Position numbers and translations under genes: made by a program. Source: Escherichia coli (GTDB lineage: Bacteria; Pseudomonadota; Gammaproteobacteria; Enterobacterales; Enterobacteriaceae). Taken from it: DNA of 64,000 nt. The stretch's first letter is position 1. Every line of letters begins with the position of its first letter. This document shows positions 1,754-32,445 of this stretch, piece after piece. A model generated the notes under the pieces. It was not told where the DNA came from and searched no databases. It saw only the letters and a list, made by a program, of their open reading frames with translations. The DNA lies in the NCBI RefSeq assembly GCF_050920415.1, contig NZ_CP169309.1. The stretch is one strand, 5' to 3'.

Positions 1754-1771
1754 TCCACTAATATGGCCTTT

Positions 1772-3925
1772 ATGCTAAGTCCTTTGCTCAAACGCTATAC
1801 CTGGAACAGCGCCTGGCTGTATTACGCGCGTATTTTTATTGCGCTTTGTGGAACCACAGCGTTTCCGTGGTGGCTGGGTGATGTAAAACTGACGATTCCG
1901 CTGACGCTGGGGATGGTGGCAGCGGCGCTGACAGATCTCGATGACCGGCTGGCGGGACGTTTGCGTAACCTCATCATTACGCTGTTCTGCTTTTTTATCG
2001 CCTCGGCCTCAGTAGAATTGCTGTTTCCCTGGCCCTGGCTATTTGCAATTGGTTTAACGCTCTCTACCAGCGGCTTCATTTTGCTCGGCGGTCTGGGTCA
2101 ACGCTATGCAACAATTGCCTTCGGTGCGTTACTGATCGCCATTTACACTATGTTGGGGACGTCACTGTATGAGCACTGGTATCAGCAGCCGATGTATCTG
2201 CTGGCCGGTGCCGTCTGGTACAACGTCCTGACACTTATTGGTCATCTACTGTTCCCGGTCCGCCCGCTGCAGGACAACCTGGCGCGTTGCTATGAACAAC
2301 TGGCGCGTTACCTTGAGCTCAAGTCACGCATGTTTGATCCTGATATTGAAGATGAAAGCCAGGCACCGCTGTACGATTTGGCTCTCGCCAACGGTCAGCT
2401 GATGGCGACATTGAATCAGACGAAACTCTCGCTGCTGACCCGCTTACGTGGCGATCGTGGTCAACGGGGAACGCGTCGCACGCTGCATTATTACTTTGTC
2501 GCGCAGGATATTCACGAGCGTGCCAGCTCTTCTCATATTCAGTATCAAACATTGCGTGAACATTTTCGCCACAGCGACGTGCTGTTCCGTTTTCAGCGAC
2601 TGATGTCGATGCAGGGCCAGGCGTGCCAGCAACTGTCACGCTGTATTTTGCTGCGTCAGCCTTATCAACATGATCCGCATTTTGAGCGCGCTTTTACGCA
2701 TATTGATGCTGCGCTAGAGCGGATGCGCGATAACGGCGCGCCTGCCGATTTACTCAAAACACTGGGATTTTTGCTGAACAATTTACGCGCTATTGATGCC
2801 CAACTGGCAACAATTGAATCAGAACAGGCCCAGGCACTGCCCCATAATAATGACGAAAATGAGCTCGCTGATGACAGCCCGCACGGATTGAGTGATATCT
2901 GGCTGCGTCTTAGCCGTCACTTCACACCGGAATCCGCCCTCTTCCGTCATGCGGTAAGAATGTCGCTGGTGTTGTGCTTCGGCTACGCCATCATTCAGAT
3001 AACCGGAATGCATCACGGGTATTGGATCTTGCTGACAAGTTTGTTTGTCTGCCAGCCAAACTATAACGCCACGCGCCACCGCCTGAAGTTAAGGATTATT
3101 GGTACGCTGGTAGGTATCGCCATTGGCATTCCTGTGCTGTGGTTTGTGCCGTCACTGGAAGGGCAGCTGGTGCTGCTGGTTATTACCGGCGTGCTCTTTT
3201 TTGCCTTCCGTAACGTGCAATATGCCCATGCAACGATGTTCATCACACTTTTGGTGCTACTTTGTTTTAACTTGCTGGGTGAAGGTTTCGAAGTGGCGTT
3301 ACCTCGCGTAATCGATACGCTGATTGGTTGTGCCATTGCGTGGGCGGCGGTGAGCTACATCTGGCCTGACTGGAAGTTTCGCAATCTGCCGCGCATGCTC
3401 GAACGTGCCACCGAGGCCAACTGTCGCTATCTCGATGCCATACTGGAGCAATACCATCAGGGGCGTGATAACCGTCTGGCGTATCGTATTGCCCGCCGCG
3501 ATGCACACAACCGTGATGCTGAACTGGCGTCGGTGGTATCAAATATGTCCAGCGAGCCGAACGTTACCCCGCAAATTCGCGAGGCCGCGTTTCGGTTGCT
3601 GTGCCTTAACCATACGTTTACCAGCTATATCTCAGCCCTCGGTGCTCACCGGGAGCAGTTAACTAATCCTGAAATTCTGGCGTTTCTTGATGACGCAGTT
3701 TGCTATGTTGATGACGCGCTACATCATCAACCTGCTGATGAAGAACGCGTCAATCAGGCATTAGCTGACCTGAAACAGCGGATGCAGCAACTTGAACCAC
3801 GGGCAGACAGCAAAGAACCTCTGGTCGTACAACAAGTCGGGTTATTGATTGCATTACTGCCAGAGATTGGTCGTCTGCAACGCCAGATTACTCAAGTTCC
3901 GCAGGAAACTCCTGTTTCGGCGTAA
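1772..3925 (+). CDS. yccS: putative transporter YccS (FUSC-like inner membrane protein)
   Basis: 720-aa ORF from 1763; second ATG at 1772 gives the 717-aa form I recall (MLSPLLKRYTW...); 18 bp downstream of yccF. Confidence 0.85.
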   Translation: MLSPLLKRYTWNSAWLYYARIFIALCGTTAFPWWLGDVKLTIPLTLGMVAAALTDLDDRLAGRLRNLIITLFCFFIASASVELLFPWPWLFAIGLTLSTSGFILLGGLGQRYATIAFGALLIAIYTMLGTSLYEHWYQQPMYLLAGAVWYNVLTLIGHLLFPVRPLQDNLARCYEQLARYLELKSRMFDPDIEDESQAPLYDLALANGQLMATLNQTKLSLLTRLRGDRGQRGTRRTLHYYFVAQDIHERASSSHIQYQTLREHFRHSDVLFRFQRLMSMQGQACQQLSRCILLRQPYQHDPHFERAFTHIDAALERMRDNGAPADLLKTLGFLLNNLRAIDAQLATIESEQAQALPHNNDENELADDSPHGLSDIWLRLSRHFTPESALFRHAVRMSLVLCFGYAIIQITGMHHGYWILLTSLFVCQPNYNATRHRLKLRIIGTLVGIAIGIPVLWFVPSLEGQLVLLVITGVLFFAFRNVQYAHATMFITLLVLLCFNLLGEGFEVALPRVIDTLIGCAIAWAAVSYIWPDWKFRNLPRMLERATEANCRYLDAILEQYHQGRDNRLAYRIARRDAHNRDAELASVVSNMSSEPNVTPQIREAAFRLLCLNHTFTSYISALGAHREQLTNPEILAFLDDAVCYVDDALHHQPADEERVNQALADLKQRMQQLEPRADSKEPLVVQQVGLLIALLPEIGRLQRQITQVPQETPVSA

Positions 3926-4517
3926 GAGAGTCAGCCCATTCTGCAAGCTCCTGGCGGCGTGCCACCGGGAGCGCAGCTTCATGAATGCCGATAATGGCCC
4001 CTTCAAGCATAAACAGAATCTTTTCTGTCACCAGACTGTTTTGCTGCCGCAGTCGCAACCAACACATTTTTGCCCCAAGTATACGTAACGCCCGTACATC
4101 CTTAATCCCCACCTCCCCGAGTATCGCTTCCAGATGAAAAGACATATTGGGCAAATCTTTCAGTCTTTCCCGGGTATTGCGCGTGCTTTTCTCTTTCAGC
4201 GCTGCATCGAGAGAATATTTCGACAGACGCACCAGCTTCAGTTGATTTCGCCATAGACTTTCATCAACCCGATAGTAATTGAGGGTAACGGATCGGCCAC
4301 ACTTTTTATATGTCAGCCAGACAGGCGGATGTTTTACACAGTACTGTGCACTTTGCTCACAAGCCCGAAGATACAACTCACCATCAGAAACCATCGCAAA
4401 CACCGTGTCGTCAACGGTCAGGCTGTAACTACCAAACAATGATCGGTATTCAATTGTGCCCAACGTTGCCAGGTATTCTTGTGATTTATAGATCCGCTTA
4501 TAGGAGAGGCTTTTCAT
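3888..4517 (-). CDS. sxy: competence regulator Sxy/TfoX
   Basis: 209-aa ORF (MKSLSYKRIYKSQEYLATLGTIEYRSLFG...) recognised as Sxy; 3' end overlaps 3' end of yccS. Confidence 0.9.
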   Translation of the reverse strand: MKSLSYKRIYKSQEYLATLGTIEYRSLFGSYSLTVDDTVFAMVSDGELYLRACEQSAQYCVKHPPVWLTYKKCGRSVTLNYYRVDESLWRNQLKLVRLSKYSLDAALKEKSTRNTRERLKDLPNMSFHLEAILGEVGIKDVRALRILGAKMCWLRLRQQNSLVTEKILFMLEGAIIGIHEAALPVARRQELAEWADSLTPKQEFPAELE

Positions 4518-4693
4518 AAAATTCCTTTTAAAATCATAACATAAAAGAATGATTCACATTAACGGATCCGTTAACTACGAAAATAGGCAACTTATTCTTA
4601 AGGGGCAAGATTAATTTATGTTTTCCCGTCACTAACGACAAAATTTGCGAGGCTCTTTCCGAAAATAGGGTTGATCTTTGTCGTCACTGGATG

Positions 4694-4713
4694 TACTGTA
4701 CATCCATACAGTA
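4694..4713 (+). promoter_or_regulatory. LexA operator (SOS box) of sulA
   Basis: tactgtacatccatacagta: CTGT-N8-ACAG palindrome 23 bp upstream of the sulA ATG. Confidence 0.85.
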
Positions 4714-4735
4714 ACTCACAGGGGCTGGATTGATT

Positions 4736-5245
4736 ATGTACACTTCAGGCTATGCACATCGTTCTTCGTCGTTCTCATCCGCAGCAAGTAAAATTGCGCG
4801 TGTCTCTACGGAAAACACTACAGCCGGGCTTATCAGTGAAGTTGTCTATCGCGAAGATCAGCCCATGATGACGCAACTTCTACTGTTGCCATTGTTACAG
4901 CAACTCGGTCAGCAATCGCGCTGGCAACTCTGGTTAACACCGCAACAAAAACTGAGTCGGGAATGGGTACAGGCATCTGGGCTACCCTTAACGAAAGTGA
5001 TGCAGATTAGCCAGCTCTCCCCTTGCCACACTGTGGAGTCAATGGTTCGCGCTTTACGCACGGGCAATTACAGTGTGGTGATCGGTTGGTTGGCAGATGA
5101 TTTGACTGAAGAAGAGCATGCTGAACTTGTTGATGCGGCAAATGAAGGTAACGCTATGGGGTTTATTATGCGTCCGGTAAGCGCATCCTCTCACGCAACG
5201 AGACAACTTTCCGGGCTAAAAATTCACTCTAATTTGTATCATTAA
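4736..5245 (+). CDS. sulA: SOS cell-division inhibitor SulA
   Basis: ORF track starts at a TTG (4730); ATG at 4736 gives 169-aa [13 protein letters not shown]..., recognised as SulA. Confidence 0.9.
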
Positions 5246-5433
5246 GTAAATTTAGGAGTAATCCTGGAACTTTTTTTGTCGCCCAGCCAATGCTTTCAGT
5301 CGTGACTAATATTCCTTGCGAAGTCTTGTCTGAAGCGGTTTCCGCGATTTTCCTCTGTAAATTGCCGCTGACAAAAAAGATTAAACATACCTTATACAAG
5401 ACTTTTTTTTCATATGCCTGACGGAGTTCACAC

Positions 5434-19743: not shown

Positions 19744-20754
19744 TTAGATATGGTTAACGATTTCTTTAATCAGCGGCGGTCCTTTAAAAATAAAACCAGA
19801 ATAAATTTGCACCAGTGAGGCCCCCGCAGCAATCTTTTCACGCGCAGCGATAACCGAGTCAATGCCGCCAACACCGATGATCGGTAAGCGACCGTTTAAT
19901 TCCTGAGACAAACGGCGAATAATTTCGGTGCTTTTTAACTGTAGCGGACGACCACTTAAGCCCCCAGTTTGATCGCAATTTTTCATACCCTGTACCAAAG
20001 AACGATCGAGCGTGGTATTGGTTGCAATAACGCCATCAATATTATGGCGAACTAAACTATCGGCAACCTGGATCAATTCTTCTTCAGAAAGATCCGGCGC
20101 GATCTTCACTGCGATCGGCACATATTTATGGTGCATCGCTTGCAAATCATTTTGCTTATTTTTAATCGCGGTTAAGAGATCATCCAGCGCTTCGCCATAT
20201 TGCAGTGTGCGTAGTCCTGGGGTATTCGGCGATGAAATATTGATGGCGATATATCCCGCATAAGCATAGATTTTTTCCATACAAATCAGATAGTCATCTT
20301 TACCCTGCTCCACCGGCGTATCTTTATTTTTGCCGATGTTAATACCCAGGACGCCATCATAATGGGCTTTTTTTACGTTCTCTACGAGGTTATCAACGCC
20401 AAGATTATTAAAGCCCATACGGTTGATCAAACCTTCGGCATCTACCAGACGAAAGAGACGCGGCTTGTCATTACCTGGCTGTGGACGTGGCGTGACGGTA
20501 CCGATCTCGATAGATCCAAACCCCATCGCGCCTAACGCGTCAATGCACTCCCCGTCTTTATCAAGACCGGCTGCCAGACCAAGCGGATTTTTAAACGTCA
20601 GGCCCATGCAGTTAACAGGTTTCGCAGGCACTTTCTGCCGCACCAGTGCTTCAAACGGCGTTCCTGTAATACGGCGTAATTGCTGAAAAGTAAACTCATG
20701 AGCGCGCTCTGGATCGAGCTGGAAAAGGGCTTTACGAACGAAGGGGTAGTACAT
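19744..20754 (-). CDS. pyrD: dihydroorotate dehydrogenase (quinone)
   Basis: 336 aa from [21 protein letters not shown]... Confidence 0.95.
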
Positions 20755-20839
20755 GAACTCTCCTGGATTCCCGGTGTGCAAACCGGGGGCGTATTATGTG
20801 CGAGTTCGGACCAAAAGGGAATTGACCTGCGGCAAAAAA

Positions 20840-32248: not shown

Positions 32249-32445
32249 GCCGGATGTGGCGCACAAAACCAGCGGTTTCAACGGATTGTAGGCCTGATAA
32301 GACGCGTCAAGCGTCGCATCAGGCATTTGGGCACGGCTGCCGGATGCGGCGTGAACGCCTTATCCAGCCTACAAAACCAGCATTTTCAACGGACTTGTAG
32401 GCCTGATAAGACGCGTCAAGCGTCGCATCCGGCATTTGGGCTCAA
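32249..32445. repeat. REP/BIME cluster between convergent ssuB and pepN
   Basis: two near-identical ~68-bp units (32265-32332 and 32372-32441) separated by the REP-type sequence gccggatgcggcgtgaacgccttatccagcctac. Confidence 0.85.

Follow-up and report, generated by a model that had tools for sequence, protein, structure and literature searches.

Overlap of the convergent genes yccS and sxy in Escherichia coli and candidate 3' signals of the yccFS mRNA inside sxy

The genes yccS and sxy (tfoX) of Escherichia coli are transcribed toward each other, and their coding sequences (CDSs) overlap by 38 bp at positions 3888–3925 of a 64,000-nt stretch of the chromosome (NCBI RefSeq assembly GCF_050920415.1, contig NZ_CP169309.1), the whole of which is called the window here. 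On balance, we favor the view that this overlap is a by-product of a compact tail-to-tail junction and not a device for dedicated control, that the yccF-yccS (yccFS) mRNA has its 3'-end signals inside sxy, and that the effect on Sxy is small. The overlap itself is not new, being already contained in the K-12 annotation and in published maps of overlapping transcription. What appears to be unreported is a stem-loop embedded in sxy just downstream of yccS, which we propose, from its sequence and predicted fold, to be a protective 3' stem-loop of the yccFS mRNA. This stem-loop accounts for the most pronounced patch of synonymous constraint within sxy, and the locus would be a clean example of 3'-end signals of one gene kept inside the conserved CDS of its convergent neighbor.

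Anatomy of the locus

The gene order within the window, which derives from the E. coli chromosome, is helD-yccF-yccS-sxy-sulA-ompA-matP. The yccF gene (1307–1753, + strand; open reading frame [ORF] list and annotation) leads the yccF-yccS operon (PMC4161252). The yccS CDS (1763–3925, + strand), which ends with TAA at 3923–3925, encodes a putative transporter of the FUSC family, of 720 amino acids here and 717 in the K-12 annotation, and Pfam FUSC families are assigned to yccS orthologues. The sxy CDS (3888–4517, − strand; 209 amino acids), whose stop codon TAA is the complement of 3888–3890, encodes a co-activator of the CRP-S regulon, and PF04993/PF04994 are present in Sxy homologues. On the + strand the shared 38 bp code for YccS residues 709–720 and the stop codon, and on the − strand for Sxy residues 198–209 and the stop codon.

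A reading made from the DNA alone (the sequence-only reading) had placed the overlap at 3888–3925, had named the two genes, and had taken yccS to be co-transcribed with yccF. The overlap is confirmed by the ORF list, the raw sequence, RefSeq, and MG1655, and the gene identities and co-transcription agree with the annotation and with the published operon map (Conway 2014, PMC4161252). The same 3' ends of yccS and sxy are annotated in a RefSeq strain that is 100% identical across a 1201-bp query (window 3500–4700), and MG1655 RefSeq has them as well (sxy, 1021138..1021767 [+]; yccS, 1021730..1023883 [−]). The junction region was found in 5425 of 5426 complete E. coli genomes. The annotations disagree solely on the start of yccS (720 vs 717 amino acids), whereas the 3' ends are fixed by the stop codons. 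An annotation artefact as the source of the overlap is ruled out, with unambiguous stops and two independent annotations that concur.

The pair thus consists of two real genes on opposite strands, each with its stop codon within the CDS of the other, and both are conserved with their Pfam domains across more than 80 species. In one census of E. coli, 75 gene pairs were counted as convergent and overlapping (Huvet and Stumpf 2014, PMC4161906). The yccS/sxy pair resembles these in its opposite strands, its overlapping 3' ends, and an origin by stop-codon movement (PMC4161906; mechanism, PMC2716372). It differs from them in no essential way; some relatives have minimal overlaps of the TTAA type, 4 bp long, which the 38 bp here exceed.

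Evolution of the junction

We fetched the loci of 80 species-representative Enterobacteriaceae with a Sxy profile; with MG1655 these make 81 loci. In two of them, L042 (E. cloacae DSM 26481) and L013 (C. amalonaticus AUH_CA_2023_1), yccS has in-frame stops or split alignments, owing to a pseudogene or an assembly error, and these loci were scored by the terminal stops of yccS. The convergent neighbor of sxy is yccS in all 80 species, and the two CDSs overlap in 76 of them, by 4, 7, 11, 14, 16, 20, 23, 32, 35, 38, 41, 44, 47, or 80 bp. In the remaining four species, the stops abut (0 bp), are separated by an 11-bp gap, or are set apart by insertions of 249 bp (Enterobacteriaceae UBA5654, locus L049, 4625–4873; two strong hairpins) and 2.3 kb (Superficieibacter electus, locus L051, 4616–6901; a 200-amino-acid ORF and a 425-amino-acid membrane-protein ORF), both with intact flanking genes.

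The distance from the Sxy W194 codon to the YccS E701 codon is 60–71 nt in 78 of the 80 species and exactly 70 nt in 48, indicating that the length of the junction has been kept while only the stop codons have shifted. In a 14-sequence alignment of enterobacterial Sxy proteins, conservation extends to about W194–L198 and is followed by a tail variable in both sequence and length. Among genera, Sxy continues for 6–26 residues past W194, and YccS for 9–22 residues past E701. The overlap, which codes for these unconserved tails of about 12 residues in both proteins, is the least conserved stretch of the junction; among 29 Escherichia, Salmonella, and Citrobacter sequences, 8% of its sites are invariant vs 17–50% in the flanking 60-nt bins.

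Only about 37 nt lie between the conserved core of YccS, which reaches about Q708, and that of Sxy, which reaches about L198. When this spacer (3887–3923, 37 nt) was randomized in 20,000 trials with both conserved cores kept, 90% of the trials gave overlapping ORFs and 78% gave overlaps of at least 38 bp, with a median overlap of 146 bp. Overlap is therefore expected given the spacer, and it is the absence of intergenic DNA that needs explaining. Both frames run through the spacer of about 37 nt to the first stop they meet, adding the short tails, and the spacing is frozen across Enterobacteriaceae while point mutations shift the stops in 3-nt steps, giving the observed range of overlaps (4–80 bp). 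We infer that, with nothing left between the two genes, the yccF-yccS mRNA has to carry its 3'-end signals within sxy.

The yccS-sxy synteny extends to more distant Enterobacterales, as found by a representative-library search and contig look-ups, while a protein search seeded with Buttiauxella Sxy returned nothing outside Enterobacteriaceae. Individual junctions overlap by 16 bp in Cedecea, 4 bp in Enterobacteriaceae bacterium ESL0689, 26 bp in Tatumella, and 26 bp in Rosenbergiella/Tatumella, and have gaps of 25 bp in Edwardsiella tarda, 36 bp in Yersinia ruckeri, 44 bp in Chimaeribacter, and 95 bp in Providencia. As a separate observation on Sxy, the E. fergusonii protein is 69% identical to that of E. 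coli vs 90% for E. albertii, an unusual divergence within one genus that could reflect replacement or fast evolution.

A stem-loop inside sxy, downstream of yccS

A GC-rich stem-loop is predicted on the + strand at 3947–3972 (stem, 3947–3956/3963–3972; arms GCUCCUGGCG...CACCGGGAGC). It starts 21 nt past the yccS stop and lies within sxy codons 182–191 ("ALPVARRQEL"), and its predicted free energy in E. coli is −18.6 kcal/mol on the yccS-sense strand and −18.1 kcal/mol on the sxy-sense strand. Of 77 Enterobacteriaceae loci, nearly all carry the stem at the same position, and the loop varies. Across these loci, 95.7% of the pair cells are paired, and four of the ten pairs have changed on both sides (13 cells). 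The observed pairing values were matched by none of 500 shuffles, and every slid register was at most 54% paired. A compensatory case is seen in the alignment for Superficieibacter, where E190Q (GAG to CAG) occurs together with a change of L183 from CTC to CTG and the pair is preserved.

The strongest cluster of synonymous constraint in sxy coincides with this stem (permutation on the lowest window mean, P = 0.0046). The constrained stem codons are P184 (CCG, 79/80), L183 (CTC, 74/80), R188 (CGC, 73/81), and E190 (GAG, 71/78), while other conserved leucine columns of sxy use five to six different codons, and of the multi-fold-degenerate codons of sxy, the three under the tightest constraint all fall within the stem. 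The structure also favors one strand: 95.7% of the cells are paired in the yccS sense vs 87.0% in the sxy sense, 68 G-U pairs of the yccS-sense strand turn into A-C mismatches on the sxy-sense strand, and of 69 distinct sequences, 60 have the more stable stem in the yccS sense. In Cedecea, the hairpin that follows the yccS stop lies in the Sxy tail, and in the outgroups with a gap it lies in the gap. The hairpin thus follows the yccS stop wherever that stop is located, which ties the structure to yccS and not to sxy.

Neither side of the stem carries a U tract (mean of 1.75 T in the 9 nt after the stem; 69 distinct sequences). An intrinsic or bidirectional terminator at the junction was rejected, as a terminator scan was empty on both strands over about 3800–4100 and the flanks of the stem are not T-rich. 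The locus is like bidirectional intrinsic terminators in having one hairpin between or within convergent 3' ends, and in the outgroups Chimaeribacter and Yersinia ruckeri the short gap contains a hairpin; unlike such terminators, the E. coli hairpin has no flanking A/U tracts and lies wholly inside one CDS. A known small RNA or cis-regulatory RNA family was also rejected, with no Rfam 15 match in the region at the gathering threshold; a scan of 3400–4800 at E ≤ 1 gave just one match, a chance one to a small nucleolar RNA elsewhere in the stretch. In Cedecea neteri (locus L083, about 4085–4115), a very strong hairpin, CUGGUGGCGCUGCUCAUAGCAGCGCCACCAG, is followed by a U-rich run just past the yccS stop; judging from its sequence, this hairpin, which occupies codons for the C-terminal tail of Sxy, resembles an intrinsic terminator of yccS embedded in sxy.

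Candidate 3' end of the yccFS mRNA

Directly after the stem-loop, a C-rich, G-poor tract at 3990–4140 on the + (yccS-sense) strand is a candidate Rho utilization (rut) region. The GC skew of this strand in E. coli is −0.35 to −0.42 over 4000–4149, and in the bins 100–250 nt past the sxy stop, C exceeds G on the yccS-sense strand in 99–100% of the 81 loci. Dar and Sorek 2018 (PMC6061677) place Rho-dependent 3' ends just after stable stem-loops without a U tract, with rut immediately downstream. The anatomy downstream of yccS has the same elements, a stable stem soon after the stop, no U-rich run following it, and a C-rich, G-poor region right behind. The difference from the 3' ends described in that paper is that here the stem-loop and the candidate rut sit in the conserved CDS of the opposing gene, and so they are kept through synonymous codon choice.

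In the mechanism that we favor, the 3' signals of yccFS would be the stem-loop, maintained via the constrained sxy codons 182–191, together with the C-rich tract. RNA polymerase coming from yccFS would continue antisense into sxy for about 100–300 nt or more, and the stable yccFS mRNA would probably end near 3973–3978, which predicts an end on the MG1655 minus strand at about 1,021,677–1,021,682.

The sxy side of the junction

No comparable signal was found on the yccS side, and sxy is therefore probably without a defined terminator. The zone that putative sxy read-through would cross antisense to yccS (3340–3887, − strand) has no conserved structure. A conserved structure in the sxy 3' untranslated region (UTR), antisense to yccS codons 600–706, was considered and rejected, as these codons contain no cluster of synonymous constraint. 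The sxy-sense RNA has more G than C for roughly the first 500 nt inside yccS. Lacking a conserved terminator, sxy would probably be read for several hundred nucleotides antisense into yccS.

Two observations on codon usage stand apart from this. Within a part of yccS that is otherwise free of such constraint, the codons T620 (ACC in 95% of 79 species) and S621 (AGC in 78%) form an isolated pair under synonymous constraint (window 3620–3625). Near its 5' end (window 4476–4502), sxy is strongly constrained at E14 (GAA, 73/73), Y10 (TAT, 72/73), and Y6 (TAT, 70/79), which may reflect translation initiation or a 5' mRNA structure like that of Haemophilus influenzae sxy.

Transcript overlap, expression, and RNase III

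Jaskolska and Gerdes reportedly found in 2015 that E. coli Sxy is under CRP-dependent positive autoregulation and proteolysis. The statement of the sequence-only reading that sxy expression is tightly limited after transcription stands in part: proteolysis is documented in E. coli, whereas the control of translation by 5' mRNA structure was demonstrated for H. influenzae sxy (PMC2248739, PMC3739930), and CRP autoregulation acts in addition. The same reading was right that antisense overlap of the two mRNAs is obligatory, as also reported elsewhere (PMC4161252, PMC12288877). Complementarity is unavoidable because each stop codon sits inside the CDS of the other gene, and for this same reason the outcome that the reading had set against its own proposal, namely 3' ends lying before the overlap on both strands, is impossible when each mRNA includes its stop codon. 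Complementarity between the yccS and sxy mRNAs spans at least 38 nt, probably 85 nt or more, and it may extend to several hundred. The idea that the overlap gives Sxy a further layer of control was put forward as a hypothesis, toward which the available indirect evidence is weak and mildly negative.

The pair has appeared in two surveys of transcription. Conway 2014 (PMC4161252) drew this locus in its Fig. 2 as converging operons and described overlap at the RNA level in 276 of 370 convergent operon pairs, with a mean of 286 nt. In ExcludonFinder 2025 (PMC12288877; Table 1), sxy-yccS is one of 165 convergent excludons that were present in 50% or more of 58 MG1655 RNA-seq samples, with coverage beyond the CDS of more than 50% of the gene mean as the criterion; overlapping CDSs satisfy this almost automatically, and the listing thus adds little. 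The locus is like the convergent excludons of both studies in that neighboring convergent transcripts overlap at their 3' ends, but the functional hallmark, mutual exclusion via interference or RNase III, is not evident here in the available data on rnc mutants.

These data are the total RNA-seq values, in reads per million (RPM) with one sample per strain, of Table S1c of Huang et al. 2020 (PMC7373196), where sxy is listed as yccR. In the wild type, the sense and antisense values are 32.7 and 9.7 RPM for sxy, 63.0 and 20.9 RPM for yccS, and 7807 and 30.2 RPM for ompA; for sxy, they are 21.6 and 5.0 RPM in rnc-14 and 16.0 and 3.6 RPM in rnc-38. Sense RNA of sxy was thus no higher in either RNase III mutant, each represented by a single sample. 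Both sxy and yccS are expressed more than 100-fold below ompA (PMC7373196), and because of this weak expression we judge that, in laboratory conditions, any effect of the overlap on the output of Sxy is small. Per nucleotide, sxy antisense RNA is about half as abundant as yccS sense RNA (9.7 RPM/630 nt vs 63 RPM/2154 nt; PMC7373196), a level that fits with substantial read-through of yccFS transcription into sxy. Double-stranded RNA (dsRNA) captured with p19 was moderate for both genes (9.5–54 RPM for sxy and 79–124 RPM for yccS; PMC7373196). Among the perfect RNase III duplexes listed in Table S3 of PMC7373196, those under yccS are at window 3339–3362 and 2447–2470 (coordinates converted in this analysis), none is in the 38 bp, and none is under yccR.

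Weighing the explanations

Several points weigh against the explanation that we favor. We infer Rho dependence from sequence anatomy, and the rows covered of the supplementary tables of Adams 2021 contain no mapped 3' end of yccFS or sxy, which low expression or the extent of those rows may explain; those of SMRT-Cappable-seq have no entry for sxy, yccS, or the coordinates of the locus. Most stem pairs are nearly invariant, and the covariation is accordingly modest (13 double-change cells); the stem is partly fixed by the invariant residues L183, P184, R188, and E190; and the significance of the shuffle and Wilcoxon comparisons is overstated, because the 69 distinct sequences are phylogenetically related. 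Finally, the arrangement has been retained very strongly, with overlap in 76 of 80 species and ORFs that never run deep into the neighboring core, and selection that couples the two genes would fit such retention as well.

Coupling might take the form of excludon-type control, in which yccFS transcription or its stable 3' tail represses sxy via polymerase collision, RNase III cleavage, or both, and thereby damps Sxy feedback. We regard this as possible but unlikely. The recurrent listing of the pair in the MG1655 samples speaks for it, but only as far as a criterion that is near-automatic for overlapping CDSs allows. The substantial level of sxy antisense relative to yccS sense RNA and the capture of dsRNA from both genes (PMC7373196) also fit it, as does the spacer-free arrangement kept in 76 of 80 species, and with sxy positively autoregulated even slight damping could matter. 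On the other hand, sxy sense RNA did not rise in either rnc mutant (one sample each), and the listed perfect duplexes of yccS lie outside the overlap. The promoters are weak, so collisions should be rare, and two species have separated the genes (by 249 bp and 2.3 kb) while leaving both intact. Were antisense transcription from yccFS to damp sxy, a hypothetical case, this would help to account for the lack of any laboratory condition known to induce sxy in E. coli (PMC3330819). A more far-reaching form of coupling, which we consider improbable, is that yccFS and sxy are a conserved coupled pair in which the stem-loop and rut in sxy from codon 182 onward drive antisense transcription, leave behind a complementary RNA tail that is stable, and thereby set the threshold of Sxy positive feedback. 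If this were true, induction of the competence genes would require low yccFS transcription, and the same sequence would serve twice, as a protein motif on one strand and as an RNA processing signal on the other, regulating a master regulator.

The stem-loop and the overlap may also be considered separately. We think it very unlikely that the stem-loop acts on the sxy mRNA, as a pause, attenuation, or stability element within the last 90 coding nucleotides, with the yccS overlap incidental. It does fold in the sxy sense too (−18.1 kcal/mol in E. coli; 87% of cells paired), and H. influenzae sxy is under mRNA-structure control (PMC2248739), but that element sits in the 5' UTR. The sxy-sense pairing is poorer, with its A-C mismatches and with the yccS-sense stem the more stable in most distinct sequences. 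The stem also lies upstream of the sxy stop, so that termination there would yield a non-stop mRNA, and the hairpins of Cedecea and the outgroups track the yccS stop. Hardly credible in our judgment is genuine dual coding under selection, in which a function of the C-terminal tail of one protein or of both would keep the overlap in place. Overlaps never exceed 80 bp though random spacers often give longer ones (median 146 bp), suggesting that stop positions are maintained; yet the tails differ between genera in sequence and length, and no part of the junction has fewer invariant sites than the overlap.

Neighboring features

In the divergent intergenic region between sxy and sulA, a palindrome, TACTGTACATCCATACAGTA, lies upstream of sulA at window 4694–4713, which we take to be the LexA (SOS) box of sulA. 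Promoter-like sites are present on the − strand near sulA at 5374->5347 and 5194->5165. An antisense transcript that spans all of sulA (window 4737–5400, − strand) and is switched on in stationary phase was described previously (Conway 2014, PMC4161252); because this transcript lies upstream of sxy and is oriented like it, it could read into the sxy promoter region. The p19-dsRNA counts of sulA are high (110–894 RPM; PMC7373196). Elsewhere in the window, Rfam matches at the gathering threshold are ordinary known elements, a PyrD leader at 20749–20822 (− strand; 97.9 bits) and naRNA4/CssrE at 32291–32369 (− strand; 82.2 bits).

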